From the NCBI GenBank assembly GCA_001938485.1, contig MQRK01253351.1, positions 1 through 60,314 on the forward strand: a stretch of DNA of 60,314 nt. Direction: 5' to 3'. The DNA is from Girardia tigrina (lineage: Eukaryota). Shown here piece after piece: positions 4,691-40,899 of this stretch. The notes beneath the pieces were generated by a model. The model made no database searches. It was not told the origin of the DNA and saw only the letters and a list, made by a program, of their open reading frames with translations. The translations under genes were made by a program, and so were the position numbers. Every line of letters starts with the position of its first letter. Position 1 is the first letter of the stretch.

Positions 4691-4769
4691 AAGAGAGAAG
4701 AGGCGAGAGGCAAGTGATTGGGGCGGCACTCGAGCTAATTATCGTTAGACACCGGGGCGCGTCTGTCAC

Positions 4770-6740: not shown

Positions 6741-7599
6741 AATAAAAGTATTTTATAAAAACCCTTGTTTAAATTAACTCAAAGTTAAATAGAAATATTT
6801 ACTTTTATTACATTAAAAAATATAAACTATATATAAATAATAAGAATAAAACTCAATTAAAATATAAATAAATTAAGTAGAATAAATAGATTAATTATGA
6901 AAGAAAGGAAAACACTATATTTAAAAAGATAAATAAAGACAATTATATATTAGAGAAGGACTATAAAAGGAGAAAGAATTTAAAGAAAAGGGCACCCAAA
7001 AAGTTATGTTAATAATTTATATTATTAATTAAAGGAAAGTTCTAAATTATATTATTAAGCAGCTGTTTTCAGAAAAGACTAATAGCTGATTCTAAATCGA
7101 AATGGAAAAGATTGAAGTATAATTGAGTTGGAAAAGAAATACTGAAGTTGATTTGAATTGTAAAAGAAAGACTGAAAGTAGAAAATTTATCGATTTAAAA
7201 AAGCAGAAAACATCTGTCACCACATATAAAAAGAACTCTGAGAAAAGCGAAAGAAAGTTGTGATTACTAGAGCTAAAAGGTGCATATAATTATATATTTT
7301 ATATCATTATATATCTTTTTTTTAAAATAATCCGAGAAAGAGAATTCTCTTCTCGGTATTATCGCAAAATCTAAAATCTTAGCATAAGGCTTAAGTTATT
7401 TTTAAATACTTTGTAAAGTGTGTAAAGTGTGATTATTAAATAAACGTTGAAATATTAATAATCTTATTCTTTTATTTCTATTTTTGCTATAATCACCCAA
7501 TATCCCAACAATTTTAACAAATTATTTATTTCTCCATTTGCTCAGATTATAACATTAAAGTCATTAATTAAAAGCCCGATGCAATCTTACGAAAGCTTT

Positions 7600-10710: not shown

Positions 10711-10799
10711 CCCTTCGAACGTTTGAGCACCACCAAAACATGGTAAATTTTATTTACCGACAACAGTTCCTTTTCCCCTAGCATTTCAGTACCCAGTCA

Positions 10800-12094: not shown

Positions 12095-15000
12095 ACCCGA
12101 ACTTACCCGAGATCAGAACAGCAAGATGTCCGGGAGAGTGCGACCCGGAAGCAAGCAGACCGTCTAGATTCTCAGCGCCAGCAATGGCGCCTTTTCAGGG
12201 TGTGTTAAATCCCAGTGCTGGTGCTGCAACTCCTCTGAGTGGAATCGATGGAGCGGCTGGAGATTGGGAAGGATACAAGGGGCGCAAAACAACCAGTAGT
12301 GATTTTAATATGATCGGTATTTCGCCGTCGTATTATGTAAAGTGTAATTTAGAGCTGCGACAATGGATTGAAGAAGCGCGGAATGGCAGGCTGCCCAGAT
12401 ATCCCTGCAAGTACCTCCTGCCACGTCCTTTGAATGGATGCCCTCAAGCGATCGAGGTACACAGGGAGAATCTCCGGCTGGTAGGATGCATAGACCAGCT
12501 GGTTGTCACGGCACGCAGAGATGGGGGATATGCTGGGCAGCCTGGAAGTAAATATTCTAATAATAAGATAGATGATAAGGTTGTGGGAAAAAGTAATCCT
12601 AGGGCGAAATTGACCATATACGGGTTTAACATCTCTAGAATTGTGGATAACCAAAGGCAGTATAATCATGGTAATAATGGGGCGAACTCAGATGGACCAC
12701 TTGTACATGGTCCTTGGCTTAATTATACTGCTGGAAGTGATTCTGTCATGGGGGGTTCCAACCATAAGGATTGGTCCTACTAATAATGCTGAAGAAAGGA
12801 GGACTGGTGGTCGTGGTTGCCTCGCTGCATATGATGCAGGAGTGTATCGTAACACTTGCGATTATGACCAATCCCGCCAAACTGAAGCAAGGGCCCAAAT
12901 GGAAAAACTACAGCCACTACATTCAAGTGAACAGTCTGAAGTAGAACGGCCACGTGCTATCCCGCACAAGGAGGACAGAGAGATTTTTATTAGTAATTGT
13001 AAATTTTATATCCATAAAACCTTATTTGGCTATTTTTTCAATAATTTTTGCATTAAATCACGTATCCTTTTGGATCTTGATATTTTTTCCTTTTATTCTG
13101 AATTTTTGTCTGAACTTAAAAATTTTGATGGATATTTATATGACTCCTTTAATTTTAAAAAAAATTGTGATTTTTATTTTGCCTTACCAAATGTTAATGT
13201 TTTTAATGGTAAAACTTTAAAGAAAAATGCTCTTTATTTAAAATTAAAAATTTTTTTTTAATTAATAAGATTAATACAAATAAGACTGCTAATGAGCTCT
13301 TTGACTTGTTCTGCCGATTTTTCACCAGGGAATTTGACTTTGGCAATCAAAGGATTTTCTCGGACTTTGTCTTGAAATCCTTTGCTAATCACATGTCACC
13401 TCCATTTGACAAATCTGCAAATCACTCCATTGAGCTCAGCTTCAATAATTTTAAAAACAAAATTAAATCATATATATATATATATATATATATAGGAATA
13501 AATTAAAACATATTACAATAGATCAAGTTACACCATTAGACGGTCTTTCACGCTAAACGTTAAACGCTTCTAGCTTATCAGCTATACTTACTTGATGACA
13601 GCATTAGACCTGCAAAGCCTCGAACTCCATATCTTGGTTGCTCTGAGGTAAGCCCTTCCAGAATTGACCATGAGAAAATTCAAAAGACTTATCTCACCAA
13701 CCCCAAAGCTGCGATTCCAATTACAGACCCCATGTTAATGCGTCTGCCAAACCCTCTCCTTCTGCCTTCACTATCTCTGTCAAACAGAATAATCCCCCTT
13801 CACTTTCGTGTCTGAAAACTTTGACTGTCCAATTAATTCTGGCCCCTCCTTTAGCTTTCATCCTCCTACAAGCGCTGAAATCGTTGCCTGTTTCCGTCAA
13901 AAAGACAAATCTTCTCCTGGTCAAAGCGGTATCTCTTATCAATATATCTTATATTGTGACCCGGAAGGAGTCATATGTGAGAAGATCTTTGCGATCATTC
14001 TTGAATCGAATACTGTTCATTTTGACTGGAAAACTTTTGACACTCTAATGATTCTTAATTCGGGAAAGGAAGGGGAATACCATCTCCCGTCCTCTTGGAG
14101 AAGCATTGCTCTTCAAGAGTGTCTCTACAAGCTTCTCACTACACTTCTCTGCTGGCAATTGAAGGCTTGGATTAAAGACAATCAGCTTACTCATTCCCTC
14201 CAGGAAAGCCTTGGCTCTTCAGACGGCTGTGCTGATCACACTTTCCTCCTACGTGCTGTGATTGATCATTACGCCAATGAGAAAAAGTCTGAGGTCCATC
14301 TTGCTTTCATGGACATCGCTGCCGCTTTTGACACTATTTCCATTAACTATATCCTGTTTGTTCTTGGAAAGATGGGCCTCCTTCCCCCCTCTATAGAGCT
14401 TATTAAGGAATAATATCGTGGCTGTCATACTAGGATCATCTGTGAAGGCGAAGCAACTGACTGACTATCAGTCACAGTTGGTGTGAGGCAGGGGTGCCCC
14501 CTGTCTATGCTTCTTTTCAATATAGGCATTGATCCAATCCTTAATAAGCTTGACTCAATCCGATGCAGAACCCCTGTCACGATTAGTCAATCCACCATTT
14601 CTTGTATGGCGTATGCTGACGACTTGGTACTCTTTGGTAGTAGTTGGTATACCCTCTATGCTCTGGTGAACACTGCCTCGAAATACATTCAAGCTGTTGG
14701 TATGAAATTTCGTTTATCCAAATGTGCATATATGGACTTTCCCAGTAGAGAGGATAATATGATCTTTCTGGATAGTGAAATTGTTCCCCACCTTAAAGCT
14801 GATGAAGGATATGTTTATCTGGGTAGCTTCATCTCCCGTCTGCTCTGTCATACTCCTGAGCAAGTTATTGCAGATGTTCGTGCTGATCTTGTCCTCCTCA
14901 AAAACTCTGTTCTCTCCCCCTCCCAGAAACTCCATGTCTATCAGACCTTTGTTCATCCGAAGATGGTCTTTTACTTCTGTAACACCTACATCCCCTTTCC

Positions 15001-16400
15001 TGATATTACGGCCTGGAAAACCGGTTGGGAAATTATTGTCCGGAAGGAACATAAAGAGTTTCTTAATCTACCGTCACAGGCGTCCAATTCCTATATCTAA
15101 ACAGATAGGCAGCACGGTGGTGTTGGGCTTACATCGGTGTTTGACGAATATATGGTGCAGTCAATCACACACAGTTTCTACCTGCTCAACTCTTCTGATA
15201 GTTTGGTTAAAGACGCTGTGTGGACTACCCTGAAATTCACATCCCACAAAAAAACTAGAAATGAGATCTTCTTCTGGACTAATGAGGGGTTTTATCCGTC
15301 TGTATGCAATAATTGGTGGAACAAAATCCAACATGCAATTTTTGTATTGAAAAAGTATTTGCATCACAATTCGTTTTGGAGACGAGTTCCCCCTCACCTG
15401 CATCACTATCAGACTTTACAACGATGATTACCAGATTGCTTCCACAATCCATGCATCTGAAATGGACAAAGTCTCTGTGTTTTTGAGAAAATGTCTCTCC
15501 CTTCATTACCTTTTCTCTTGGACTGAGCAGAAAAGTGCAGGTCGATCGGCCTCTGCCCTCTCCCTCTCTTCCTACACGACGTCTATCGTCTATAAAAGTC
15601 ATCTTTCCAATTTTGAATGGGAGTTCATTCAGAAGGGTCGCTCTTATACTCTCCCTGTTAACTGTTGCTTCAAGGTCACTGTCCTTTGTAGACACTGTAA
15701 TGAATATGCCGAGACCCTGCCCCATGTTTTTTTGCTGTTGTCACCCCTTCATGTCGTATACGAATGCTCGTCACGACTCTGTCCTTGACATTCTTGTGTC
15801 TGAGATTAAGGAACACATCAATGCTGAACTTGACGTCAATCTTCCTAGTCGCTTTGTGCACTCTATGCTCAGAGTCGACTTACAGATTTACTTCCCCGAC
15901 AAAAAAAGGATCGTCTTAATTGATGTCAAATGTCCTTTTGATGAAAAGGATAATCTGGAACGGGCTAACAATGACAACCTTGAACACTATAAAATGTTAA
16001 AAGAATGTATACAGGAGAAATACAGCGATCATATGGTATTATTGTTCACGTTCATTATAGGAGCTCTGGGAACCTGGATCCCAGATAACATCAAACCGCT
16101 CCGGGCAATTTTCTTATCACACAGAGAGAAATCCATCGCCTATGCGGCCATCTGGAGCAATATTCGATGGAGCGCACGAAAATGGGCAGCATTCGGCGAC
16201 GGAAGAGACGCCTCTAACCTGTCTCGATTCCGGGATGATCCGGCTCATGACCCAAGAGCCCCGTCAATCGAAGGTCATATCTTTGAAGATGAAATGAACA
16301 AGAATACCGAATCAATCCAACCAAACTCCACTAATAACCGAAGTGGTGACCAGTGTCCTGATGCAAATTAGCCAAAACAACTATGAGGGGTTAATTTTAA
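12095..16400 (+). mobile_element. RLE-type non-LTR retrotransposon (NeSL/R5-like), copy A: N-terminal region, RT, CCHC knuckle and restriction-like endonuclease, with stops and frameshifts
   Basis: SSPGQSG, SSWRSIALQECLYK, AFMDIAAAFD, GVRQGCPLSMLLFN, MAYADD, YVYLG, HGGVGL. Knuckle CRHC..ETLPHV..C...RHDSV. Endonuclease RVDL...IVLIDVKCPF...FIIGALGTW. Stop at 16371. Confidence 0.92.
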
Positions 16401-16952
16401 ATTTTTATCTCGCCTGAATAATTTATTATTTTTTTAATTTAAAAGGTAAAATATTTTTATGTTAATTTGCTTATTAAATATTTTAAAAAAATTAAAAATT
16501 ATATAATAAAAGAAAATCATAAAAAAAGTAAAATATTTATTTAAAAATAAAAAATATCTTTAATGTATCTAAATAATGTTAAATATCTTAAAATTAAAAA
16601 TGTCAAGAAAACAAAAATATTAAATATTTATTTATAAATAAAAATATTTTTAATAAGCAATTTTAAAATTTGATTTTGAAAATAAAGTTTAAATAATTTT
16701 TTGAAATAAATTTTCGAAATGAATCTTCAGGATTTTAAAAATTAAATCGAAAAGAATTTAATAGATTAATTTGGGTCGAGATACTTAAATTAACAGGAAA
16801 ATTTGTTTTAGAAATGTGAATTGTTATAGTAATAAATTTTGGTGTTAAAAAAATGAATTCTGATATAGACGTTGCAACCACTTGTCACAACAACAAATCA
16901 GATCAAGTTCCGAAAGGGCAACTAATAACTTTTGTTTTGAAATAAATTTTAG

Positions 16953-17105
16953 TACGACCTGCGCAGTAATCAACTTACCTGGAACCAGCTCAAGAGTATA
17001 CTTACCTGGGACCACCTCAGGAATCAACTTACCTTGGACCAGCTCCAGAGTCAACTTACCTGGGACCCGCTTCTGGAGATCAGAGGCATACTTACATGGG
17101 GCCAG
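16953..17105 (+). repeat. Tandem 27-bp repeat (about 5 units) at the 5' end of copy C
   Basis: Units CAACTTACCTGGAACCAGCTCAAGAGT / ATACTTACCTGGGACCACCTCAGGAAT / CAACTTACCTTGGACCAGCTCCAGAGT / CAACTTACCTGGGACCCGC.. / ATACTTACATGGGGCC. In frame with ORF 17096 as (S/Y/H)TYLGP repeats. Confidence 0.9.
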
Positions 17106-20085
17106 AAACGTCAAACACCGTGCAGAGTGCGATCCGTAAATCGGCAGAACCTCCAGATTCCCAGCAACAGCAATGGCCCCCTCCTCATGACGTGCTAAAC
17201 CTCAGTGTTGTGGCTGCAGACGGAATCAATGGAGCAGATGGAGACCAGAGGACAGCGGACGGAACAAAAACAACTGGTAATCAGCTTGTTGAGATCGGTA
17301 TCCCTCCGTCCCTTTATATTCAATGTAATTTAGAGCTGCGCCGCTGGATCCAGGATGCCCAAGAGAACAGGCTGCCCCTAGCGAATCCCTGCAAGTACCT
17401 CCTGCCACACCCATGGAATATCTTTTCTGGCAGCCCTGTCTTGTTCGAATCTAAGGACCTTGAAATACATCTCTCTTCTCTTTGCAATAGAAAGTCTCTC
17501 GCCCTTACTCTTGCTCCTGGAAAAATTGATAGTCTCTTTAGGACTTATACTTCTTTTAGAACTAGGTGCAGTCAATCTGAAATCTTTTCTGATAAAATTC
17601 TTCTTGGCTTTTACTCTGCCTATAGGGATATTCTGTCGTCGGAAATTGACAAGATAACCATTGTTCGTCAAAATGGTTCCAACTTCGATCTTGATCATGT
17701 CATATTTCTGGAAAAATTCACCCAACTTATCAAATCCAAGGGCTTCTTTATTCCGAAATCGGATCTTCTTGTTGATGAATTTTCCTTATTTCTTGTGGTT
17801 CATTCGCTGGGAAATTGTACCTTCTCTGAGGATGTGGGAGACGGTCCAGGGCCGAATGCTCTCCTGCCCTTCTTGGCTTTCTCTAATCATCATGTTGATG
17901 CATTTGCTGAAGCCTCTGTTAACTGCAAGGATTTCTTTGTCTTTCCTGTAGATCTTTCCAGCGTAATTGTCGCCAACAATAGAGATTTTATTCTGGAACA
18001 TTTCTGCCTTCGTGATATTGCCAACAAAAAGAATATAGCCTTTCATCTTTTCTTTCGGCAATATCGCTGGATAGTTGTAACTTGTGACTTCTCTTCATTT
18101 ACTATCTATGTTTGGGATCTTCAGTCGTTCTCTCTTTATCGATATATCATTCTGACTTTATGTGATTTCTGTAAGGGCTTTCTGATGGTCCACCTTATCT
18201 ATGCTGATTCCCTCCCTAACAATGTTACCTCTACAAAGTACATTGATAGTGGTTCTCTTATTTGTGGTTATTTGAGGAATTTTCCGGGAGTCTCTTTTGA
18301 TAATAGGATCAACCTGAAAGCCATCCGAACCTTTGCTATGAAGTTTGTTCTTCGATCTTCTGGTAAGGTTAAGAAATCTGCTCATCCTTCTACCACCTAT
18401 CGCTGTGTGGCTGCGCGAAAGGTTTTCGCCCTGACCTTTAACAGGGATCATGCAAAATGATGACCTTGACCAGCTTAATTCTGCTTTTTCTGGTCATATC
18501 TACTCTATTAGACCTGTGAAACTTCGTTCTCCATATCTTAGCTGCTCTGAAGTTAGCCCTGGTAGAGTAGATCATGGCAAAATTCAAAAGACTTATATTC
18601 TAAATCCCAAAGCTGCTATGGTCTTTATCAGAACACGAGTGAACGCATCTGCCGAACCCACTCCTGTGGATTTTACAAATTGTGTCAAACGGAATAATTG
18701 TCACTTTCAATTCCTTCCTGACTCTTTTGATTGTCCTATTAAGACAGGTCCTGCTTACTCTTTCCGTCCACCAACTAGAGAAGAAATTCATTCGTGCCTT
18801 CGGCAAAAAGACAAGTCCTCCCCTGGCCAGAGTGGAATCTCTTACCAGGATATCTTGTACTCTGATCCTGAAGGAGTTATTTGTGAGAAAATATCTGGTA
18901 TTATTCGTGAATCCAACACTGTCCCTTCTGATTGAAAAACTTTTGACACCGTCATGATCCCCAAATCCGGGATGGAGGGTGAATATCACCTTCCGACATC
19001 TTGGAGGGGCATTGCTCTTCAAGAATGTCTTTACAAGCTTCTCACGACACTTCTTTGCTGACAACTGAAAGCTTGGATCAAGACCAACGATCTTCTTCAA
19101 CCTCTCCAGAAGAGTCTTGGTCCCTCTTATGGCTGTGCTGAACACACCTTCCTTTTGCGTGCTGTTATAGATCACTATGCCAACGAGAAAATGTCTGAGC
19201 TTCATCTTGCCTTTATGGATATTGCTGCCGCCTTTGACACCATTTCGGTTGATTATGTCTTGTTTGCTCTTGAAAAAAATGAGTCTTCTTCCTGAGTCAG
19301 TTGAGCTTCTTAGGGAATTATACCGTGATTGCCATACGAGGATTATTTGTGAAGGGGAAGCAACTGACCGGTTACCAGTCACTGTTGGTGTTAGACAAGG
19401 GTGTCCCTTGTCCATGCTCCTGTTTAACATAGGTATTGACCCAATCCTCAATAAACTTGACTCAATCCGGTGTCGTACCCCCGTTACGATTGGAACCTTC
19501 ACCATCTCTTGTTTGGCATACGCTGATGACTTGATTCTATTCGGAGCTTCGGAAATTGCGCTTAACACTCTTGTGACCTGTGCTTCCAAATATGTTAGGA
19601 TCGTTGGTATGGAATTTAGGCAATCGAAATGTGCGTATATGGACTTCCCATACAACAAGGATAACATGCTTATTCTCGATTATCAGATTGTTCCACGTCT
19701 GAAAGCCGATGAAGGGTATGTCTATCTGGGAAGCTTCATTTCCCGTCTACTTCGTCACACTCCGGAACAAGTGATTGCTGATGTTGTTGCTGATCTTGCC
19801 CTTCTGAAAAATTATGCTCTTTCGCCTTCTCAGACCTTTTGCTTATCAGACCTTTGTCCATCCAAAAATAGTCTTCTACTTTCGAAACACTAATATTCCT
19901 TTTCCTGACATAACAGCCTGGGAAACTGGTTGGGAAATTGTGGTTCAAAAGGAACATAAGGAGTTCCTGAACCTTCCTCTGTGTGCCTCCAACTCATATA
20001 TTTACACCAATAAAGAACATGGTGGTGTTGGTCTTACTTGTGTCTTTGACGAATATATGGTGCAGTCTATTACCAACAGCTATAT
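16953..20085 (+). mobile_element. NeSL/R5-like retrotransposon, copy C: N-terminus, degenerate Ulp1-like domain and RT, 3'-truncated
   Basis: Shares IGI.PS.Y..CNLELR.WI..A...RLP..PCKYLLP with copy A. Ulp1-like RWIVV..IYVWD..DSGSLICGY. RT motifs VRQGCPLS and LAYADD are colinear with copy A. Homology ends after MVQSIT. Confidence 0.9.
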
Positions 20086-20539: not shown

Positions 20540-22760
20540 TGGGTGAAAATGATTTCCCTTCATTGGGTCTCCCGAACTCTGTCAATTCAACGGGGCAACA
20601 GAATAAGTATTTTGATTCCTATGAGAAGGATAAGATTGTGGGAAAAAGTAATCCTAGGGCGAAATTGACCACACTCGGTTTTACAACCTCTAGAGTGACG
20701 GATAACCCAAGGTGGTATGGTCAAGGCAATACTGGGAAGTTCTCAGATGGATCAGTTATAAATGGTCCTCGGCCTAACTATACTGCTAGATTTGACTCCG
20801 GTATGTGGGGTTCGAACCATAAGGCTGGTCCTACTAATAATGCGGAAGAATGGAGGGCTGTTGGTCATGGTCGTCCCGCTGCAGGAGTATCTCGTAACAC
20901 TCGCGATTTTGATCAATGCCGCCAAACTGAAGCAAGGGTCGAAATGGAAAAACCACAGCTTCTACATTCAGGTGAACAGCCTGAAGTAGGATGGCCACGT
21001 CCTATTCCATACAAAGAAGATAGTGAAATTCTTGTTAATAATTTAAAATTTTTATTCATAAAAACTTATTTGGATATTTTTTGATATTTTTTGCATTAAA
21101 TCACATATTTTTTTAGATTTTGATAATTTTTCTTTTTATTGTGATTTTTTGTCTGAATTGAAACAATTTGATGGCTATTTATACGGTTCCTCTAATTTTA
21201 AAAATTTTTGTGATTTTTATTTTGCTTTATCTAATGATTTTTAATGGTAAAATTGTTAAGTTACAAATAAAACGCACTTTATTTAAAATTAAAAAGTTTT
21301 TTAAAATTAATAAGATTAATATTTATTTAAATGCTAATGAGCTCTTTGACTTGTTCTACCGATTTGTCACCAAGGGATTTGACTTTGGTAGTCAAAGGAT
21401 TTTTTCCGATTTTGTCCTAAAATCCTTTGCTAATCACCTGTCACCTCCATTAGACAAATCTTCAGATCACCCCATTGAGCTAAGTTTTAATAATTTTAAA
21501 AATAAAATTAAATCATATTTATATAGGAATAACTTAAAACATGTTAAAATAGACGAGGACCTCTTCTCTTCTTTTAAATCTCTTTTAAAAAAAGACTCGT
21601 GGAAAGTAGAACTTGACACCTTCATTGTTGGGCCACTAGGATCATGGCTACCCAAGAATGAACTTATTTTTAATGATTTATTTCTAGGAAAAAAGGAAAA
21701 TATCGATAGCTCGCGCCTGCGTTCTATCCAACATCAAGTGGTCAAGTCGGTTCCCTTGGCTGTAGTTTCGCTAGATATAGATAGGGAAAGTAGGAATCTC
21801 GTTAATCCATTCATGCACGTCACTAATTAGATGAGGAGGCATTTGGCTACCTGAAGAGAGTCATAGTTACTCCAGCCGCTAACCAGCGCTTGATTGAATT
21901 TCTTCACATTGACATTCATGGCACTGGGCAGAAATCACGTTGCATCAAAGCCGTTCACAAGCCACTGCAATGTTTTGTTTTAATTAGACAGTCGGATTCC
22001 TCTAGTCAACGCCAGTTCTAGGTTGACCGTTAATTGTACAATGATGACCATGAATCCGAAAACTCACAAATCATAGCCTAACACGCCAATCAATCAAGTA
22101 GAAAAAGTTCCATTTAAACTCCATCTCAAGTTACCAAGAAACAGAATCAAAACAGCTAAATTCCAATTCAATCAACTTCTTGATTAAGCCCATCATCAAA
22201 AACCTACAAGAAATACAGTACCCGATCCCTGCTCACAATCCATATGATTTTGACGATCGGACACTGCACACTGAAGGAGACATATTTGAGCATGATGAGC
22301 CATTAGATATACCAATTTCAGAATACCTTGAAGTTTAAGATTGTTTGAGATTTTGTGGAGGAGGGTTCGACCTTAGTGATGAGAGCATGTATGTCTGACC
22401 TTTTTATCGACCCCATATAAAAGCCAATGCACTGTTGTGTCAGCAGTTTTTTATTTTTTTTCTGCCAACAGTGTATTTTGTTAGCTGATTTATGGTATAA
22501 CTCTATTTAGAGTATAGGATTAGTGTTTGTATGATGACTCTCACAGACTGAAAGCTCTCTCATAATTGACCGATCATGAACACAATTACATATGTCTAAC
22601 CGGTGGACTGATATTGTTATTCGTTCCCACAATGAACGTTATTCGTTCTCGAGAAGTCTCATTCAATGCCTACGAAACAACAATCAGATAATCAAACAGC
22701 CAGAAAAACCTTGTTATATAAATATAATTTTGATCAATTAAAAAAATGAATAATAAAATA
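20540..22760 (+). mobile_element. NeSL/R5-like retrotransposon, copy B: internally deleted (no RT), N-terminal region joined to RLE C-terminus, with a 3' UTR
   Basis: 20627-21555 is homologous to 12572-13525. Then WKVELDTFIVGPLGSWLPKN...IARACVLSNIKWSSR. After the rDNA insert the frame resumes PAHNPY...TEGDIFEHDE..* (22228-22338), comparable to PAHDP..IEGHIFEDE in copy A. Confidence 0.8.
21750..22227 (-). rRNA. Diverged 28S (LSU) rDNA fragment spanning the R2/R5 target region and the adjacent expansion segment
   Basis: Reverse complement of the conserved LSU core: TTCCCTTGGCTGTAGTTTCGCTAGAT, GAATCTCGTTAATCCATTCATGC, GGCATTTGGCTACC, GAGAGTCATAGTTACTCC, CACTGGGCAGAAATCAC, TTAATTAGACAGTCGGATTCC. 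Fragment only, so not a functional gene. The right boundary lies in variable sequence and is less certain. Confidence 0.93.
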
Positions 22761-22950: not shown

Positions 22951-23089
22951 GGATTTGCGGACAATTCAACACAGCGGAAAATTCGACACACAGAAAATTA
23001 GAAACACGGAAAATCCGTGTGTCAAATTTTCCGTGTGTCGAATTTTCCTCCGTGTCGAATTTTCCTCCGTATCGAATTTTCCGGTCACC
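22951..23089. mobile_element. Short palindromic MITE-like element built from GAAAATTCGACAC-type units
   Basis: The left half has repeated GAAAATT(C)GA(C)AC and the right half the inverted GTGTCGAATTTTC units. Confidence 0.6.
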
Positions 23090-23460
23090 CTTAGAGCGCG
23101 CAGATAGGAATAATCTCGAACATTATCGACTTATCGAACATACAAAATAAAAACAGTGATCATAGTGTGTTATTATTCAACTTCATTGTAGGAGCTTTAG
23201 AAACCTGGATCCCGGATAACATAAAACCCCTCTGGGCGATCTTCCTTTCAGACAGAATAAAATTCATTGCTTATGCATCCATCCGATCAAATATTCGATG
23301 GAGTGCGCGTTATTGGGCTGCTTTCAATGATGGAAGGGATACATCCAACTTATCCCGATTCCGGGACGATCCGATCCACAACCCAGGAGCCCCTACAATT
23401 GAAGGCCCGATATTCGAAGATGCAGAGGATGAAGTAGCTGTCCAATACAGCTTCCAGTAG
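23090..23460 (+). mobile_element. NeSL/R5-like retrotransposon, copy D: endonuclease C-terminal fragment
   Basis: LERA..NNLEHY...LLFNFIVGALETWIPDNIKPL.AIFLS...SNIRWSAR.WAAF.DGRD.SNLSRFRDDP, closely matching the end of copy A. Confidence 0.88.
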
Positions 23461-23608
23461 TCACCGAAGTGGCGAACGGTGGAACTGAAGAAAAAGATTG
23501 CCAAATCTCCAAATCAAATCAAGTCCCAAGAGGGCATAAAAAATCTTTTGTTTTGTAATAAATTATATAGCTCGCAAATATTCATCTTATATCCTTTGCC
23601 TTTTACTA

Positions 23609-23950
23609 ATGACAAAAACGACAATGGAAATTTCAAACGCCACAAGAAGACTACTCGAAGCGATCGCAACAATCCCGAAAGACATTCTCAACAATAACAA
23701 CAAAGAGAGGCTGAACGAGATTGCCGACACTTTAATAACAATGGCGATCCTACTGGATCAAAAAGTACCGATCAGACAGTGGACCAACTTTTCGGGACAA
23801 AAACGGCATCGGATAGACTCGACTGAACAACCACAGAGACGAACCGCGACCGATGAAACAGCGAACCGACGGACGGGAATATCGATCATTAAACCCGATA
23901 CCCACAGACCGGCACACCAACCGGAGATGGATCCGAAAGGTAATAATTAG
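23609..23950 (+). CDS. Unrecognised small protein, tandem family unit 1 (C-terminus cut by the hAT insertion)
   Basis: 113-aa ORF with TRRLLEAIATIPK...KERLNEIAD...LDQK.PIRQ...RRTATDETANRRTG. Paralogous to the units at 25852, 26522 and 26918. Confidence 0.55.
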   Translation: MTKTTMEISNATRRLLEAIATIPKDILNNNNKERLNEIADTLITMAILLDQKVPIRQWTNFSGQKRHRIDSTEQPQRRTATDETANRRTGISIIKPDTHRPAHQPEMDPKGNN

Positions 23951-25078
23951 AGAGCGGAATAATTACAGTAAACCGTAACCGTAAAAAAACCCGTATTTTT
24001 GCGACTGAAAATGAAAAGGCCGTAAATTCTAATCTTGATAAATAAACCAGTAATTACGACATTTTTGAAATAAAAATTCAAAATATTGACATTGTAATAT
24101 AATATTACTAATATTGTAACATAATTTATTTTAAAAATTTGTTTTAAAACACTTTTTGAAACAGTAATAATTCAAAATTTTATAATAATGGTAAATTTAT
24201 CTAAATATAAAGCACTAACTGATTTAATACGTGCGAATAGTGATTTTCAAATAAGAAATGATAAAGTATTTTGTCAAATATGCACGAAAGGATTTAGATA
24301 TTTGCCAAAAGAAGGAGTTGCAACACTGACGAAGCATTTGAGGTCATTAACACATATATCTGCCAAGAAAATTAATAATGGTAAGAAGCAATCTGAACTT
24401 GTTTTTTCACATGAAAAAAGCAACAAATACTCTGAATTTGATAAAGACCTTGTTGAAGCTTTTTGTGCAGCCAACATACCATTTAAAAAAATCGGTAATC
24501 CAAAAATGAAATTTTTTTTGGATAAGTATTGTAAAATTTTTGTCAAAAGCGAATCATTTTACAGAAAATTTATTTTAGATGATATTTATAAATCAAAGAT
24601 AACAGATCTTTATTTAAAATATCAAAATATTCCAATTTATTTGATATTTGATGAGGCGACAACCATTACTGGTAGATCAATTTTAAATATTTTAATTGGG
24701 CAATGTGGTGAATACCTATTATCGCTTAAATTAATATCTGTTGTAGATAAAAAATAATCCAGATTTAAATTTCTTTTTAACATATAATGCAGTTACATGT
24801 GGGATTGAAGAAAAATTATTTGAATATGTTCCACTTGTTTCTGCTTCAGCTGAAAGATCTTTTTCACTTTTAAAAATTTTGTTCAGTGAAAGAAGAACCA
24901 ATTTAACCCCAGATAATCTCGAAAAGTTGTTAATTTTGTATTACAACAAATAAATGTTTTATGTTGGTATTTTTCATTTCATTATATTTTACCGTAATTA
25001 ATACCGTAATTTTACCTTATTTTTACCGGAAATTATACCGGAAATTTGACTTTTTTACCGTAATTATTCCGCTCTCTA
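23948..25078 (+). mobile_element. Internally deleted hAT DNA transposon (CGGBP1-like type)
   Basis: TIRs TAGAGAGCGGAATAATTAC(A/G)GTAAA and an 8-bp TSD GTAATAAT (23940-23947, 25079-25086). ORF 24188-24757 has a CxxC...H..H finger, AFCAANIPF and IFDEATT. C-terminal dimerisation motif SASAERSFS..K.....RRTNL at ~24830-24950. Confidence 0.92.
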
Positions 25079-25609
25079 GTAATAATAATCAATCACATAA
25101 TTATATGTTATGTAATAATAACTTCTTAATTAATTTATTTAATTCTTTCATTTTAAATAATTCATTTATAAAAAATTTATTTTGGGCAACAAATGAATTT
25201 AAAAAATAACACTATTTTTTTCAATAAATCAATTAAGTAGCTTTTCTGGACTAAAAAATCCCTTAATGATTTTTTTACAAAAAAACAAAATAAACGAATT
25301 TTGGGTGAATTTTTAGCCATACTTTTTTGGTCACCATAATTAAATTTTTATCTAGCAAAAAAAATTATTAAATATAACGTCAATATAGATGTTACAAAAA
25401 TATTGTATATTTATAACAATTCTTATTTTTAATGGTTTGTGTAAAAAGAAAGTGCAAAAGTTCCTCGGAAATATTTGTTTAAAAAACCGCATATTGTGGT
25501 AGAAATAAAGTTTTGTGTTAATGATAACGTCTTTTGATCAAGAACCCAATATAATAAACTTTGTATTTTCGCTGTTAATTATTGGTAACTCTTTCACTAC
25601 AAAAAGAGT

Positions 25610-25780
25610 ATTATTAACCACATCTTAGTAATCTCATTAGTAAACACGACATGTTTCAGTCGGATGAAAACGCATAGACTTTTGAAGGTCAAAGAAATTT
25701 ACACTGCAAAACATGATCATATGGTTGTACTACTAGTAAATTAAAGAATAAGTACGAATAAATAAAGAGGAAAACAGATA
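25610..25780. repeat. ~170-bp dispersed repeat, second copy at ~28762-28925
   Basis: Near-identical TATTAACCACATCTTAGTAATCTCATTAGTAAACACGACATG...ACATGATCATATGGTTGTACTACTA. Confidence 0.85.
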
Positions 25781-25851
25781 AATAACAACAGTGTAAAAAA
25801 TCTTTCCACAAAGATTCCTCTTACATCTTTCACCTTTCATTAACGACAACG

Positions 25852-26475
25852 ATGACGACGGAAATTTCCAACAACACAAGAAGACTACTCGAAGCAATCT
25901 CGACGATCCCGAAGGAACTTCTCAGTAGCAGCAGCAAGGAGAAGTTGATCGAAACTGTCGACATTCTAGTTACTATGGTGAAGACATCAATCCCACTCGA
26001 TCAGCAAAAACCGATCAGACAACGAACCGACTCTTTGGAGCAGAAACATCATCAGATGGACTTAACTGGATATTCACAAAGACGAACCGCCACCGATGAA
26101 AGATTACTCGAAGCGATCGCGGCTATCCCGAAAGAACTTCTCGGTAATAACAGCAAAGAGAAGTTGAGCGAAATAGCCGACAATTTGACTACCATAATGA
26201 AGACTTTGATCATACTTGATCAAAAACAACCAATCAGACAGCGGACTGACGATACAGCGAACCGACGGACGGGAATGTCGATCAACAGCCCGGATACCGA
26301 CATACCGGCACACCAACTGGAGTCGGATAGGTTCGGTAATAATTATCAATTATATAATTATATATTATGCAATAATATTTTTTTAATTTATTTATTTAAT
26401 AATGAATTAATTAATTTATTTAATGATTTTATCTCAAATTATTTATTTAATAAAATATTGAAAAATTTATTTTGA
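25852..26475 (+). CDS. Unrecognised small protein, tandem family unit 2 (core module duplicated internally)
   Basis: 207-aa ORF with two RLLEAI..IPKELL...SKEKL.E modules. Confidence 0.55.
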   Translation: MTTEISNNTRRLLEAISTIPKELLSSSSKEKLIETVDILVTMVKTSIPLDQQKPIRQRTDSLEQKHHQMDLTGYSQRRTATDERLLEAIAAIPKELLGNNSKEKLSEIADNLTTIMKTLIILDQKQPIRQRTDDTANRRTGMSINSPDTDIPAHQLESDRFGNNYQLYNYILCNNIFLIYLFNNELINLFNDFISNYLFNKILKNLF

Positions 26476-26521
26476 AATTTTTTTGGATTTCCCACAAAGA
26501 TTCCTTTTATATCTTTTATTA

Positions 26522-26851
26522 ATGACAACAACGTACTTCGAAATATCAGCACCAACAAGAAGACTACTGGAAGCAATATTAGCAATTCATAAGGATGCTC
26601 TCAATACCGACAACAAGGAGACACTCAATAGGATTGCCGCCAAATAACTTGCAAAGATGGAGATGGCGCTTCTTCATGACGAACAAGAACCGGTCAAACA
26701 ACGGAACGACATCTCAGAATCAATGAAAGAACGGGTGGACCCGATGGAACAACAAAGGAGACGAACCGCCACTGGTGAGACAATGAACCGACTGACTTTT
26801 CATCGATTGGAAAATTGGATATCGATATACCGGCACACCAAAAGAGAATAA
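26522..26851 (+). pseudogene. Tandem family unit 3 (one internal stop)
   Basis: MTTTYFEISAPTRRLLEAILAIHKDALNTDNKETLNRIAAK*LAKMEM...RRTATGETMNR. Confidence 0.6.
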
Positions 26852-26917
26852 ATCACTCTTTAACAACGGTGAAAAAATTTTTGAAGTTCCCACAAGGATT
26901 CCTTTCACCTTTCACCA

Positions 26918-27400
26918 ATGACAATAACGTACTTCGAAATATCAGCACCAACAGTCTACTGGAAGCAATATTAGCAATTCCAAAGGATGCTGTCTATGAG
27001 GAGTTAGTTTAAATTTAAGTTTCGCCAAAATAATTTATTATTTTTTTGATTAGAAAATTTAAAAGAAATAAATTAAAAAATTAAAATGTAGAGTAAAAAT
27101 ATGATAAATAAATTTTGTGGTGTTAAATTATGACTTCAGAATGTGATAATAATGAAAGTGGCATAAACGCTACTTACACTGTCAATACCGACAACAAGGA
27201 GACACTCAATATGATTGCCGCCAAATTGCTTGCAAAGATGGAGATGGTGCTTTTGCTTGACGAACAAGAACCGGTCAAACAACGAAACGACATCTCAGAA
27301 TCAATGAAAGAACAGGTGGACCCGATGGAACAACAAAAGAGACGACCGCCACTGGACAGACAATGAACCGACTGGCTTTTTCATCTATTATAAAATCGGA
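26918..27400 (+). pseudogene. Tandem family unit 4 (frameshift, interrupted by a 184-bp insertion)
   Basis: Close duplicate of unit 3, split at 26995-27178 and cut at 27401 by a pogo end. Confidence 0.6.
26995..27178 (+). mobile_element. Small solo-LTR-like insertion
   Basis: TATGAGGAG...TACTTACA with a 5-bp TSD CTGTC (26990-26994, 27179-27183). The empty site is visible in unit 3. Confidence 0.7.
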
Positions 27401-27402
27401 TA

Positions 27403-28640
27403 CAGTAAAGATTCACAAATTGCAACTTCACAAATTGCAACTAATACTAATTGCAACAAAAATAGTTCACCTTATTCATTAAATTCAACTTTTTTCCAAA
27501 AAAATGTTTTAATATTATATTTAGCAAAATATTAAACAAAAAGTAAATAGTTTAAATTTGAATTAAATTACTTAGAAAATTTAGATATCCATGAATAATA
27601 AAAAGAAATTATTATTTTCTCAGAAATTAGATATACTAAATGATATAAAGGAAAATATTCCAGTAAAAGTAATATGTGCGAAATATAATGTACATAGTAG
27701 TACAATAACACGAATTAGAAACAATAGCGACAAAATATATGATTTTGCTAAGCAAACCATTGTTCCTGTGACAAGGCTTAAAAGAATAACAAAGGTGACA
27801 ATGTGTGACACTGAAAGAGCAGTATATAATTGGTTCTTTAATGAGAGAATGAAACATAACACGGTATCTGACACCATGTTACAATTGAAAGCATTAGAAT
27901 TCCATAAAGAATTGAATGCCAACGTAAAGTTTGAAGGTAGCCATGGTTGGGTACAAAGATATAATAAAACTGTAAGTGAAAAAACTATTGATAAATATAT
28001 AAAATACTTCTCATACACTTTAAAAAGGGTGACACTTATACCTGCGCGAAGAAATAATCCGGAGGTTGTTGATCAAAGACAAAAATACACAGATTGTTTT
28101 TATGAAATACTCACTCAATCAGATCCGAAGAATATAATATTCATTGACGAAGTGGGTTTTAATGTGATAATGAGGAAAAAAAATTGGGCGCACATTGAAA
28201 GGAACACCTGCTAGTTATATTGTGTCAGGTATGATATCTAAGAATACTTTCAGTCTGTTGTGTCATGAATAAGTATGGTATTTTAAAATATTTAGTTCAA
28301 GATAAGCCCTTTGAAAACAGACGTTTTTGCATATTTATTAAGCAGTTATTTGAAGAAATTTTAGAGCACAACGCCGTAATAGTAATGGATAACGCATCTT
28401 TCCATAAGCATGCCAATGTCAAAGAAATTTTTAACAATTCATCAAACAATCTTGTTTTTCTTCCACCATACTCTCCGTTCTTAAATCATATCGAGAATAT
28501 GTTTGCAAAGTAGAAATTTCTAGTTGCAGAATCTCGTCCAAATAATGAAGAGCAATTATTGAACAGTATGAGGAATGTTGCCAGCGCAATAAGTGAGGTG
28601 AATTGCAACGGTTATTATAGCAATATTATATCAAGTATTG
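27403..28640 (+). mobile_element. Chimeric Tc1/mariner-superfamily remnant: pogo/Tigger 5' end and CENP-B-type HTH joined to an IS630-like DDE domain
   Basis: TA|CAGTAAAGATTC.. terminus. HTH-psq/CENP-B region QKLDIL...KYNV..STI, ERAVYNWF...LQLKA...FEGSHGWVQR. Then VSEKTI...YTLKRV..IPARRN, IIFIDEVGFN, VIVMDNASFHK, FLPPYSPFLNHIENMFAK*K. Confidence 0.85.
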
Positions 28641-29884
28641 TGACATTTTAATTTCATGTTAAAATTTTATGAAGTTTATAAATGAATAATTGAACTTTAT
28701 TTTTGGTTTTTTTATTACGAAATGACGTTTCCTCAATTACGAAATGAGAGGTAAAACCCTGTATTAACCACATCTTAGTAATCTCATTAGTAAACACGAC
28801 ATGTTTCAGTCGGATTAAAACACATAGACTTTTGAATGTGAAAAGGTCAAAGAAATTTACACTGCAAAACATGATCATATGGTTGTACTACTAATAAATT
28901 AAAGAATAAGTTCGAATAAACAAAATGGAATACAAATAAATTTGAACCCCTGATCAAATATTTAAAAATCGAATACCAAAACGAGGTACAAATATACCTC
29001 TTTTCAATAGGAATGGAAAACTATCTCAAAAAGATCCGATATTCCTAACTGTGGAGAATTAGCGGCCGAATTAACAGACTTTCTTTAACTGAAATGAAAG
29101 TCGCGGACACTTTGAGTGCGCTTGTATCAGTGATCAATAAATTTCGTTTTGTTCTTCAGACTGGTTACATCACTAACGTCAACGCGCGAGAAACAAACAT
29201 TAAACAATCGCACATTATAAAAGTACGTCAATACGAAAATAACAAAGAGAAAATAATAACGAATCTTACATCATCCGAATGAATATTGCTGAATGTTTTC
29301 ATCAGAATTTTTCAAACAATTTATTTTATATATTTTGTTAATTATTTTTAATGCTCTTTTAATTTCTCTTTCAAACATTTTTTATTAATTTTTATAAATT
29401 TCTGTTGTAAAAAAATCAAGATTGTAAAGATTTTCTTTTTCTGAGTGATTTAAGGGGGGTCGACCGACCGGCAGAAACGTTCATAAAAATTAACACAAAA
29501 TTCGAAAATTATAAAATAGTAGAAACAATATTTTATATAAAATAGTTTTAAATGGAAGAAATAAAATGAATCAACGTTCGCGCTCGCATTAAAACAGCTT
29601 TAGACTCAAAATACATTCAAAAAATATATTTCAAATTCGAATAATTACAATTTTTAAAATAATACAAAATAATTTGTACTTGTTTTTGGTCGTCATAAAA
29701 TAAGAGCGAATTAAAATAGTAAAGTGAGATTAAAACAAATAATTAATAAATTGTTTTATTAAACTGACTTTTAAAATAGCGACTTTTTGATAATCGCAAA
29801 TTTTGAAAATGAAAGTTTCAATAAAAAATTATTCCCAAAATAAAACTATTAATAAATTATTTCACGCGCGTTATTCATAAATAA

Positions 29885-34966: not shown

Positions 34967-36090
34967 TGTTAAGAGAACTCACACATTTGACAGAACATTT
35001 ATTACATTCACAATTTTTATCATCTTTATGATGATCAACAGTAATGCTTTTACTTAGATCCATCAATCAATTTTCAATATCTCTCATTATAATCTGAACT
35101 ATACTTGAGAAGATTATTTTTTTTAAAAATATTTAATTTAAATTTTATTGGTTGAAATAAAAAATTTCTATAGTCATTTTGAAACATTAATTTGATTTTA
35201 ATTATTTAAAAAAATTAAAAATAAAATCATTAAAATTATTTAAAAGTTGCAATAATAAAAACTAAAAATTTGAATATTAAATCTAAATTTAAATAAATTA
35301 GTTTCAGATTATAAAAAATAAATATTGATAATCCATCTGGTTAGGAGAGACACAATCCCAAATCAACATACAACATTTGAACATGCAAAAACTACACAAA
35401 AACATCCACACACCAAATATTCCTCACATCCCCCTTGATTTAAATGGCTTTAGCCATTCCACATTTCTGATCAAAATTCTACCATCTTCTAGCTCCAATT
35501 CATAACTTCTTTCATGTCTTCTGCTTTTTACTGTGGCTGGACCCATATATCGATCTTCTTCCTTTGTAGCATTTTCTTTTTTATCAACACTTTATCCCCT
35601 GTATGAAATATTCGTTTTGTCTCTATCGTATTTTCGCTCTTTTCTTTCTTATTACAACTCTGTTTCTAAGAATCTTTCCACCAATGTCTTAGCTTCCTAC
35701 CAAATATCATTTCTGCTGGTGAGATTCCTGTGGTAGCTTGAATTGTGCTGTTCATCTTTTATCCTTATGTTAATAGCATCTTTAATAGTTCTAAATTGTC
35801 TTTCAATGATGCCATTGGTATTGTGATAATAAGGACTGGAATAAATTATTTCTGCTTTAAATCTCTTCAGTGTGTCTTTGAAGAGTGTTGATTCGAATGC
35901 TTTCCCTCTCTCCACATGGATCTCTTTTGGTGGTCCGAATTTCCAAATCCATCTGTCCAGTAGTACCTTCCGAGCAGTTTTCTCATCTTGATGAATTAAA
36001 GCATTTAGACTTATATACCTGCTAAATTGATCAATTATAGCTAATATATTGATATAAATTTAAAGTCCTTTTAAATGGTCCGCAAAAATC
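34967..36090 (-). mobile_element. Gypsy 3' end: integrase fragment, PPT and 3' LTR (34967-35428)
   Basis: Minus-strand WIWKFGPPKEIHVERGKAFES...SSPYYHNTNGIIERQFRTI. Purine tract AAGGGGGA directly before the LTR start TGTGAGGAATATT. Confidence 0.88.
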
Positions 36091-36594: not shown

Positions 36595-39032
36595 CCCTTA
36601 AACGACCATTGGGTCTAGTGGACACCAAAAGGTTTTAAAATATAAATAACTTTAACAATTCAAATACAATTGAATCTAAACTATGAGACATTTCTTACAT
36701 AATATGGATGTAAAGTTTACCAAAAGTTGGTCCGTCTAACGTTTTTAGTTTTTTAGGAACAGGGTTTTTAAAAAATTGTCACAAATTATACCATGTGGGG
36801 TCTGTGAGACCCCAAATGAATAATTAGCAAAATGAAATATTAAAAGTATTGCAATGCATTTTGATCAGTAATAATAGCAAGATTCATATGTACATATGCT
36901 CATTGTATGCATGAGTTACTCAATTGGTATATAAAGGCTCATAAATGTCATGCACATACTTTTAGCCAGTTATATGTGAATATATTAGGTTATATAAGCG
37001 CACACGTTTATTGCCTTGTTTGCTGCTGCATTTATACATGTCTACGCACGGTCAGTCAGTTATATTCGAATTGTATGTACGTCTCTACAACTGCATAAAT
37101 TAGCATTTTCATTGTTTTCAAATCGTTTTATAAATTGTATATTTTTTTGAATATGTAACGTCCAACTAGAATAGCTGCAATTGAGGCGAAAAGACTCATA
37201 GCAATTGGTGATGATATTTTCGAAGGTTTAATTTTGAGTTATCTTTTGTAACATATAATTATTTTTTACTTGACCAGATGATGAAGAAAACGAAGAAGAT
37301 TTTTCAGAAGATGATGAAGTTGTTTCCAATCCAAGAGAGCAAGAAAGTAGTGACTATGATTTAGAAGTGGTAAACAATGATGAGCAAGGCGTTATGGTAT
37401 CTCGAAATGGCATTTAAATATGGGAACGTCGTTATATTTTTAATGCTGAAAGACAGCATAGACAACACCATATCTTACGTGAGGAGGCAGGGCCCACACG
37501 ATAAGCACTACAAAATGGTTGTGGTGACAGCCCATCGAGAGCGTCCAAAGTATTCTGTGGTTTAGATATAGTGGTCATTATCGTTCAAAACACCAACATA
37601 GAAGGCCGAATACACAACACTAATTGTATTTAACAAATTCTGATGAGTTGTATAGATTTTTCGGTCCCCTCCTGCTTGCCGGAGTTTATAGAGCGAAAAG
37701 CGCAGCAATCACTCAGCTTTGGAATGAACAACATGGTAGACCAATATTCAATAAATTGATGTCCCGGAATCGTTTTTGTGAATTGAGACGGCATTTACGC
37801 TTTGATGACAGGGCACACGTGAAGAACGTCGACGAGATGACAAATTGGCGCCAATTCGAAATGTCATTGACATTTTACAACAAAGTGCCGATCAAGTTAT
37901 AAACCCGAAGCAGTTGTCAAAGTTGATGAGCAATTTGTGACGTTTCGTGGACGTTGCCCATTCAAAATGTTTATTCCAAATAAGCCGGGTAAATATTGTA
38001 TGAAATTGTGGGTTGCAGCGGATGCAGGGAATTCCTATTGTGTCAACCTTCAAGTTTACACTGGTCGACGTGGTAGTGAACGTGAGGTGGGACAAGGTAC
38101 CAGAGTTGTACTTGAATTAACTGAGCATCTGACAAATACAGGTAGACACGTCGTTGGCGATAACTTCTTTACAAATATTGTGCTTGTTCGCGCTCTATTG
38201 ACACGTCGCTTGACTTACCTAGGGACTGTTCGTAAAAATAAAGGTGAACTGCCTATGCAAATGTTACCCACACGACAACGACAGGTTTTGTCAAGTACCT
38301 TTGGATTTCAACGGGACTGCACAATTGTTTCATACCTACCAAAGACAGGAAAAGCTGTAGTGCTTATGTCATCATTGTACCATGATGACTTGTGTGAGGA
38401 AGATGTTCCCTACAAACCCCACATAATTCTGGAATACAACTCACAGAAAGGTGGGGTTGACACTCTCGATCAAAATATGCGGTGCTACTCATCAAAACGA
38501 AAAACAAATACATGGCCATTTGCATTGATTTGCAATTTATTGGATATTGGCGCGTACAATGCTTTCGTGTTCTATACAGCTGTACATCCAAATTTCGCAA
38601 ATCAGGTTAGTCATCGTTCACGTATGTTTCTATTACAACTAGAGACCGAATTGGTGAAAGATGATAATCCACCAATGTTGCCTAACCCAGGTGGACCAAT
38701 TCGTCCCAATTAAAAGCGGCGATATCATTTGTGCCCCCGACAAAATGATCAAAAGTCTAGACAACAATGTGACATTTGTTATCAGGCAGTTTGCTTTGAG
38801 CACTCAATTCGTCGTTGTAATAAATGTCAATAAAACTTTTCATATTCTTGTCATTGTTTTATAAATTAATAAATTTGTATATTTTAATACTCTTAACTTA
38901 CTAGTGTGATGTTAGAGACTAATAAAATTAATTTTTTGATAATAGTAACCGTAAAAATATAGATTCTGTACTGGAGTCCAGAAGACCCCATTTGGTACTC
39001 AACGTGATTTTTTTTTCTTGGTCGTTTAAGAG
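36595..39032 (+). mobile_element. Full-length but decayed piggyBac transposon
   Basis: TTAA TSDs (36591-36594, 39033-39036) and TIRs CCCTTAAACGACCA / TGGTCGTTTAAGAG. Transposase motifs MSRNRF, VDEQ..FRGRC, KPGKY..K, GDNFFT, GTVRKNK, YN..KGGVD and a C-terminal Cys-rich domain. Frameshifted, with a probable short intron at ~37226-37278. Confidence 0.95.
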
Positions 39033-40299: not shown

Positions 40300-40899
40300 T
40301 TATCGAATGTTCACTCTGCATCGGATAAATATTTGATCATTATCGATCAATGATCGATCATTATCACTCGATAATTCTTTCAATGACACAAATTTGCCAT
40401 TACCACAGATCAAATTTGAATCATTTATCGATTGCGGCTTTCGATTATCTATGTTATAACCAATACCACTGTCACACTTGTATCGATCGAAGTATTTGAC
40501 AGTCGAGCTGGTGTGAATTCGTGTCGCGTGTCGATCGATCAGCTGAAATGTTACGTCATGTTTGAACGGCCACGGTAAAATATCGTCATATTCGCCCCGC
40601 ATCACACGACACTGGACATTCAAATGAGTTGCAGCACAAGGATACACTCTCAGATACATTTTATATCCGTTTGTGTGAGAATAGAATGATTCACTGTCGA
40701 TACAAGATTGTTTCCTCTTCTCTGTCCATTGATCGATCCGCCACACGAATTCTCCTCCACAGTTCGCTTGATCTCGATTGTTCTGCAACACTCTCATTTC
40801 ATTCGTCATATTCGATATCGATTTATCTCTCTCTTTCGATATCGATTGCAAATCGGTGATTGTTTTATTGATTCCATCGATTTTCGTTTCACTTTCTCT
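40300..40899 (-). CDS. TRAF-family terminal exon (coiled coil and MATH/TRAF-C domain)
   Basis: Acceptor TTTTATTCAG at 40900-40909. GEFVWRID..., SESFYSHTNGYKMYLRVYP, VMRGEYDDILPWPF..VTFQLID, DQIFIRCRV. Open to the stop at 40300. Confidence 0.88.
   Translation of the reverse strand, partial: RESETKIDGINKTITDLQSISKERDKSISNMTNEMRVLQNNRDQANCGGEFVWRIDQWTEKRKQSCIDSESFYSHTNGYKMYLRVYPCAATHLNVQCRVMRGEYDDILPWPFKHDVTFQLIDRHATRIHTSSTVKYFDRYKCDSGIGYNIDNRKPQSINDSNLICGNGKFVSLKELSSDNDRSLIDNDQIFIRCRVNIR

Follow-up and report, generated by a model that had tools for sequence, protein, structure and literature searches.

Tandem multigene families that are restricted to one lineage can evolve by birth and death. 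In planarians, two groups of mobile elements also invite comparison, namely the giant long terminal repeat (LTR) elements of the Burro type, which carry accessory open reading frames (ORFs) according to the cited parts of their description (PMC6431247), and the LIN/R5 lineage of the NeSL clade, which includes LIN26_SM and LIN24_SM in the sections of PMC4640811 cited here. We describe a tandem family of related coding units in a stretch of 60,314 nt from Girardia tigrina (contig MQRK01253351.1 of assembly GCA_001938485.1, positions 1-60,314 of the forward strand), which is hereafter called the window. The family lies directly behind a fragment of a LIN/R5-like retroelement with a restriction-like endonuclease (RLE).

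Like the birth-and-death families, the array consists of head-to-tail paralogues with apparently old subfamilies, moderate purifying selection, many pseudogenes, chimeras that seem to be born from deletions, and transposon insertions. Unlike these, it has no sequence or fold link to a named family, no signal peptide or clear membrane helix was seen in its protein (highest 19-residue hydropathy 0.9-1.4), and the window holds no intact member. With the Burro accessory genes it has in common that these are non-enzymatic ORFs in planarian repeat DNA, but neither an LTR or gag-pol nor any of the domains named for Burro (MATH, BIR, BCL2, dUTPase) was found in or beside the family, Burro being compared by description in the cited parts of PMC6431247. 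The neighbouring retroelements resemble the LIN/R5 lineage in their R2-like reverse transcriptase (RT), their 3' terminus and a nearby antisense 28S fragment, whereas the tandem family outside the 3' end of the element sets the locus apart, as does the LIN24/26 site of the local 28S fragment, which by eye is uninterrupted.

Copy structure and length of the gene

The family comprises four co-oriented units, arranged head to tail and containing five modules (Table 1). DNA comparison and tblastn both recovered them, in agreement with a preliminary description of this DNA. DNA identity ranges from 61 to 76% among the modules and reaches 91-93% for units 3 and 4, and protein identity among the five copies is 40-89%. 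No sixth copy was detected in the window by tblastn with units 1-3 (E<0.01) or by the hidden Markov model of the family. Every copy is broken, fused or truncated, and none encodes the whole protein.

The preliminary description took the units to encode proteins of about 110 amino acids (aa), a size that has to be revised: the gene has about 250 codons, and the 113-aa ORF of unit 1 is a truncation, in which the apparent stop is the first codon of the left end of a 1131-bp hAT element. The segment behind this element (25079-25388) matches the C-terminal domain of the database relative P0001 in all three frames, with scores of 77, 64 and 67 compared to maxima of 46-47 in 300 base shuffles each, and it matches P0004 in one of three frames. 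Since the stop is derived from the hAT element and the C-terminal domain resumes behind it, up to an end like that of P0001, unit 1 is a start-to-stop pseudogene of the ~250-codon gene, with a length of 641 nt without the insertion. A GT after unit 1 and module 2b was considered as a splice donor and dropped, as the relatives read straight through.

Unit 2 consists of two paralogues, 76% identical, that are fused into one open chimeric ORF of 207 codons. Module 2b has a short in-frame deletion in the linker and retains the first ~40 residues of the C-terminal domain, after which it is cut by the upstream region of unit 3. The junctions between units fall at differing positions in the gene, as would be expected if a tandem array had undergone deletions and unequal exchange. 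The hAT, LTR and pogo insertions noticed earlier are present in the form of the hAT element, a solo-LTR-like insert and pogo/Tc1 fragments; no right inverted repeat was found for the latter. A hammerhead or LTR identity for the 172-bp repeat upstream of unit 2 was unsupported, with no convincing hammerhead or LTR ends.

Table 1. Features of the tandem family and its immediate surroundings, in window positions.
Feature	Positions	Strand	Remarks
RLE copy D, 5'-truncated 3' end of a LIN/R5-like RLE non-LTR element	23095-23567	+	ORF stop 23460, terminus near 23567; 75% identity to 16009-16291
Unit 1 upstream motif, degenerate	23570-23587	+	Abuts the retroelement terminus
Unit 1 (subfamily I), codons 1-113: helical hairpin, linker, PAHQ motif	23609-23947	+	56% identity to P0001 residues 1-115, E 5e-32
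Decayed hAT transposon, 1131 bp	23948-25078	+	Terminal inverted repeats, perfect 8-bp target duplication; Dimer_Tnp_hAT E 1.4e-5 (Pfam)
Unit 1 C-terminal domain, frameshifted, partly deleted	25079-25388	+	Natural stop 25386-25388, where P0001 ends
Unclassified 172-bp repeat upstream of unit 2	25612-25783		Second copy 28762-28941, 91% identity
Unit 2 upstream region and motif	25783-25821	+	Motif 25804-25821; likeness to unit 4 reaches ~20 bp 5' of the motif
Module 2a (subfamily I), hairpin and linker	25843-26100	+	First ATG 25852; in-frame join to 2b near 26100
Module 2b (subfamily I)	26101-26475	+	From codon ~13; 43% identity to P0001 residues 11-153, E 1e-27
Unit 3 (subfamily II)	26490-26845	+	Motif 26490-26507, ATG 26522, in-frame stop 26645-26647, frameshift near 26797, end after DIPAHQ
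Unit 4 (subfamily II)	26861-27402	+	Motif 26888-26905, ATG 26918, frameshifts near 26950 and 27345, cut at 27402
Solo-LTR-like insert inside unit 4, 184 bp	26995-27178		5-bp target duplication; left end akin to the 16382-16876 insert (70% over 123 columns, E 4e-14)
Pogo-like and Tc1-like transposase fragments truncating unit 4	27403-28650	+	After a TA dinucleotide; HTH_Tnp_Tc5 E 2e-8, DDE_3 E 1e-17

When 1.84 billion cluster representatives of all lengths were searched with a profile built from the modules, six relatives were identified, P0001 to P0006, whose E-values range from 2e-24 to 2e-9 and whose lengths are 252, 171, 158, 234, 58 and 88 aa. No long relative with an enzyme domain was found among these six matches, none of which is long enough for an RT or a transposase. 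P0001 (252 aa) and P0004 (234 aa) run past a DIPAHQ-type motif into a domain rich in N, F, L and K. P0001, the only one of the six that looks complete, is not from this window; it is uninterrupted and colinear with unit 1 from start to stop. As judged from these alignments, the gene is about 250 codons long and apparently intronless, and encodes a predicted N-terminal helical hairpin, a disordered linker with the DIPAHQ-type motif and the N/F/L/K-rich C-terminal domain. In a second search with an enlarged alignment, which gave 4578 candidates with E-values inflated by matches already in the query, only P0001, P0004 and P0002 were recovered, each as a single sequence on one contig of 1.1-1.8 kb. 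The last 30 residues of P0002 are an out-of-frame reading of the 5' part of a unit (0 of 1000 shuffles as good against units 1, 2a and 3), while the comparisons of this tail with module 2b and with two control frames were not significant. A head-to-tail join of units would so appear to exist in another source too, unless the P0002 contig is chimeric.

Subfamilies, selection and the upstream motif

A tree of the N-terminal domain with 11 rows, representing the five modules and the six relatives, is split into two subfamilies at 100/99 support, with five of eight inner branches unresolved. Subfamily I contains unit 1, modules 2a and 2b, P0001, P0003, P0005 and P0006, and subfamily II contains units 3 and 4, P0002 and P0004. 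The order along the array is I-I-I-II-II, neighbours are most alike, and each subfamily includes members from both the window and the database.

The five modules were aligned as DNA only, over 276 columns, and subjected to a codon-model test. The ratio of nonsynonymous to synonymous rates (omega) was 0.46 in the proposed frame, with a likelihood ratio test p of ~2e-4 against an omega of 1, on all three tree shapes. This frame contains one stop compared to 7-23 in the other five, in which omega was 1.0-1.6 with one exception: the antisense frame that is in register, and so has third positions in common with the proposed frame, gave 0.55-0.57 and contains 7 stops. In a neutral simulation, omega values of 0.47 or lower were obtained in 1 of 372 fits (124 simulations in three frames), corresponding to 1 of 124 simulations if the best of the three frames is taken. 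The terminal branches are constrained too (omega 0.43, p 0.005 against 1). Branch models showed no difference between the tips of units 3 and 4 and the rest (p 0.8), so that the time of decay is not resolved by them.

The pairwise tests are individually weak, with p<0.05 in 3 of 10 pairs, and nonsynonymous codon differences exceed synonymous ones in every module pair. Purifying selection on one frame is real but moderate. The idea put forward earlier, of an orphan gene array under past protein-level selection, is supported by the tree-level omega, the subfamilies and the relatives, with the protein size revised and all copies being broken. The comparison of dN/dS between units that had been proposed gave, at the level of the tree, a value that is not near 1.

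The conserved upstream motif of the preliminary description is exact in units 2, 3 and 4, which provide the three perfect sites among 12 matches at up to 3 mismatches; in unit 1 it is degenerate, with 11-12 of 18 positions identical. Between units 2 and 3, 16 of 18 motif positions are identical as compared with 45 of 86 third codon positions. This conservation above the level of third positions suggests a constrained cis-element and is indicative only, as the motif window was chosen for similarity.

Predicted protein and possible origins of the array

The models of both the 113-aa and the full-length protein contain a helix-turn-long-helix hairpin at residues ~10-55 and a disordered linker. 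In the shorter model the helices span residues 10-20 and 29-52, with pLDDT values of 77-83 over residues 11-50. The C-terminal domain was predicted with low confidence as a beta-hairpin followed by helices. Conserved columns (L15, I19, I22, K32, E33, L35, I38, L42 and D53) are mostly hydrophobic helix positions together with K, E and D, and no catalytic pattern was seen among them. A homodimer prediction for residues 5-60 without an alignment gave no answer (score 0.02) and weighs neither way. Tentatively, and at somewhat less than even odds, the models would fit a soluble, non-enzymatic, intracellular two-domain adaptor with a hairpin that grips a partner. It is speculation that a function in defence or genetic conflict would account for moderate constraint combined with high turnover. 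A resemblance of the start of the C-terminal domain to Ulp1 was considered and rejected, since no His/Asp/Cys pattern follows and Pfam was negative.

That no family was recognized in the preliminary description agrees with our searches of libraries and folds. The best Pfam matches of five unit pieces and five of the six relatives had E-values of 0.012-0.07, none of which passed the cut-off. For the ten alignment rows, PHROGs gave four single-member matches (E 0.006-0.07), none above the cut-off, and NCBIfam gave none. There were no matches among PDB sequences up to E 10, no usable match in the ESM Atlas for unit 1 and P0001, and none in phage genomes; a word-index search with unit 1 alone confirmed none of three candidates, and none of 33 pattern matches in bacterial and archaeal genomes was confirmed. 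Foldseek retrieved nothing at E<=0.001 from the PDB with the 113-aa model or from BFVD with the 252-aa model, both being low-confidence models, and the best VIA-align score (Z 5.1) was to generic helical pairs and covered residues 2-62 only, with the C-terminal domain outside the coverage. Literature searches yielded no description of such a family, although keywords cannot detect a sequence family. The protein family appears to be new and without a name, its tandem arrangement is of an ordinary kind, and the libraries covered here contain no described family that it matches.

Given the observed copy structure, the coding frame and its selection, the true length, the subfamilies and each of the lesions, we favor the hypothesis that the array is a lineage-restricted tandem host gene family in birth-and-death decay, with a probability of roughly 0.55. 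On this view, tandem duplication at the locus would have multiplied an apparently intronless host gene of ~250 codons, giving rise to a head-to-tail cluster that comprises two old subfamilies. Deletions between neighbouring copies may then have fused or truncated 2a to 2b, 2 to 3 and 3 to 4, and elements of the hAT, LTR-like, Tc1/pogo and LIN types would have inserted in or beside the units. The upstream motif could be a core promoter or a 5' leader element. In the protein, the conserved amphipathic N-terminal hairpin may bind a protein partner or a second molecule of the same protein, and the flexible linker would tether a fast-evolving, helical C-terminal domain.

Several observations weigh against this hypothesis. 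None of the copies in the window is intact, and their neighbourhood consists almost entirely of transposons. P0004 breaks off within the C-terminal domain, and four more of the six relatives are short, fused or continue into repeats; decay at such a rate would be in keeping with mobile DNA as well. All three relatives that carry a source label come from contigs of 1.1-1.8 kb, one contig each, and high-copy repeats assemble preferentially from data of this kind. P0002 could be a chimeric assembly, units 2 and 4 have a similar 5' boundary (a weak signal, 19 of 500 shuffles), and the full-length model is poor (mean pLDDT 49.5), leaving the fold of the C-terminal domain unsettled.

The main rival, which we consider rather unlikely, is that a mobile element contributed the ORF as a non-enzymatic accessory or ORF1-like gene and that the array is made up of stacked remnants of this element, be it a giant LTR element like Burro, a Polinton, a rolling-circle element or a non-autonomous unit of an unrecognized kind. 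In that case, the hairpin would oligomerize as in retroelement structural proteins. The transposon-dense setting, the broken appearance of most relatives and their short contigs, the lack of introns, the moderate omega and the accessory ORFs of Burro would all suit this explanation, as would a differing ORF of similar build inside the RLE copies (12574-13522 and 20629-21553). However, that ORF is not detectably homologous, no enzyme-bearing long relative occurs among the six matches, and no terminal repeat, inverted repeat, rolling-circle end, target duplication or tail was found around any unit at this one locus. The five copies, with their range of protein identities and their order by subfamily, are better explained by local duplication than by independent insertions. 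Distinctly less likely is a further possibility, namely that flatworm genomes contain an unrecognized mobile gene cassette of which the units are copies. Such a cassette would stack head to tail and would have variable 3' ends, a single non-enzymatic ORF with two domains, and a conserved 5' cis-motif that attracts LIN-type retroelements.

Two other explanations involve the retroelement next to unit 1. The motif of this unit begins ~110 bp past the stop of copy D (23570 versus 23460), as had been noted earlier, and the terminus of copy D lies within a few bases of it. We consider it improbable that the units are a multicopy target of a LIN-like element that cuts just upstream of the motif. The junction itself would fit, and planarian LIN families have diversified targets according to the cited sections of PMC4640811, but an element is present at the site in only one of four units and a unit follows only one of two element tails. 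The targets named in those sections are 28S rDNA and tRNA genes, and according to S6 Fig of the paper, numerous 3' ends of LIN26_SM lie within other transposons or in unrelated DNA, so that an off-target insertion would be ordinary. By eye, neither an upstream half of the unit 1 promoter nor a target duplication was seen 5' of copy D, where the flank is disturbed by a hairpin insert. The use of the units as a LIN target is thus unsupported, as it rests on one junction.

More improbable still is the earlier suggestion that the gene is a 3' cargo of an RLE-element subfamily, in spite of the strand and the short distance shared with copy D. Two RLE 3' tails have a terminal motif in common (16929-16948 and 23545-23564; chance mean 0.05, the pattern being drawn from these sites), which in copy D precedes unit 1 and which, when compared by eye, looks like the 3' ends given for LIN26_SM in S6 Fig of PMC4640811, within the sections cited. 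Since copy D ends just before the motif of unit 1, the gene lies outside the retroelement. The only other element terminus in the window, at 16952, is followed by the next RLE element and not by a unit, and units 2-4 have no element upstream. Because the 3' terminus precedes unit 1 and the other tail lacks a unit, the cargo idea is unsupported and unlikely. The least probable explanation is a non-coding tandem repeat with chance open frames; all copies are broken and the pairwise tests are weak, but it is refuted by the tree-level omega, the six-frame control, the neutral simulation and the uninterrupted, colinear relative of 252 aa.

Gene clusters in this kind of decay are commonplace in animal genomes. 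If the hypothesis of a host gene family in birth-and-death decay is true, it would add a fast-turnover family of ~250 aa with a defined start, end and domain layout and two subfamilies, which can be searched for in planarian genomes and transcriptomes. The family also provides a clear case of AT-rich DNA that could be taken for intron or intergenic sequence and yet codes for half of a gene. Its value is that of a useful annotation and not of a surprise, and would rise should the family turn out to act in transposon control or to represent a new mobile cassette.

Neighbouring retroelements and other features of the window

The RLE elements upstream of the array encode an R2-like RT, for which the best PDB matches are R2 proteins (E 4e-13). 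An ORF at 16970-18460 corresponds to an RLE N-terminal ORF with short peptide repeats and has no Pfam match; it holds what we take, by eye, to be a degenerate Ulp1-like motif. A decamer in these repeats presumably resembles the 5' end of the U1 small nuclear RNA, with no Rfam U1 match. The ORF that occurs twice, at 12574-13522 and 20629-21553, encodes a GC-rich linker and an AT-rich N/F/K domain, its copies being 80% identical. One copy is located between the N-terminus and the RT of RLE copy A, and the other directly before the C-terminal fragment of copy C, which is without an RT. Homology of this ORF to the C-terminal domain of the tandem family was rejected (hhalign probability 0.8%; 80-447 of 1000 shuffles as good in eight comparisons).

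An isolated 28S rDNA fragment at 21742-22242 on the minus strand covers the R2 region (Rfam, 283 bits) and has, by eye, about five departures from the Rfam consensus in common with the Schmidtea mediterranea line in S6 Fig of PMC4640811, as far as the cited sections go. Taken with the LIN-like tails and the GC content of the window, this comparison by eye makes a triclad host probable. An RLE C-terminal fragment (21553-21740, plus strand) runs into it, antisense to the rRNA, which is the orientation shown for LIN elements. A solo-LTR-like insert in the RLE 3' untranslated region (16382-16876) is flanked by a 5-bp duplication with one mismatch and is akin to the insert in unit 4; possible further relatives lie at 5331-5730, 6430-6742, 34972-35428 and 52609-52714. 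Just 5' of copy D, a long imperfect hairpin of 17-bp repeats (22958-23083) is similar to miniature inverted-repeat transposable elements, and its microRNA-family scores are below threshold.

Elsewhere in the window, TRAF-like pieces were identified on the minus strand, with a MATH domain at 40300-40944 (E 5e-22) and a RING domain at 50694-51152 (E 1e-4), both without introns over these stretches. Host-like ORFs, among them 46272-46760 (-), 4641-5120 (-) and 45195-45542 (+), include a myosin head exon, a DnaJ first exon and an SSRP1-like fragment. A 205-aa ORF at 51869-52486 (+) has no database match and presumably recalls mitochondrial S4-domain proteins. A 1.85-kb repeat (8892-10719 and 56202-58046, 94% identical) contains a short ORF, without a Pfam match, that we take to recall Penelope-type GIY-YIG ends. 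Fragments of piggyBac-type, Mutator-like (MULE) and LTR-integrase sequences and of the RT of an apurinic endonuclease (APE)-type long interspersed nuclear element (LINE) lie at 37871-38713, 59156-59755, 35697-36059 and 411-1013. There are assembly gaps near 48650 and 52795, and a block of 8% GC with internal repeats extends over 2001-4000. The GC content of the window as a whole is 31%, which is close to that of the S. mediterranea genome, given as >70% A/T in the cited part of PMC11410931.

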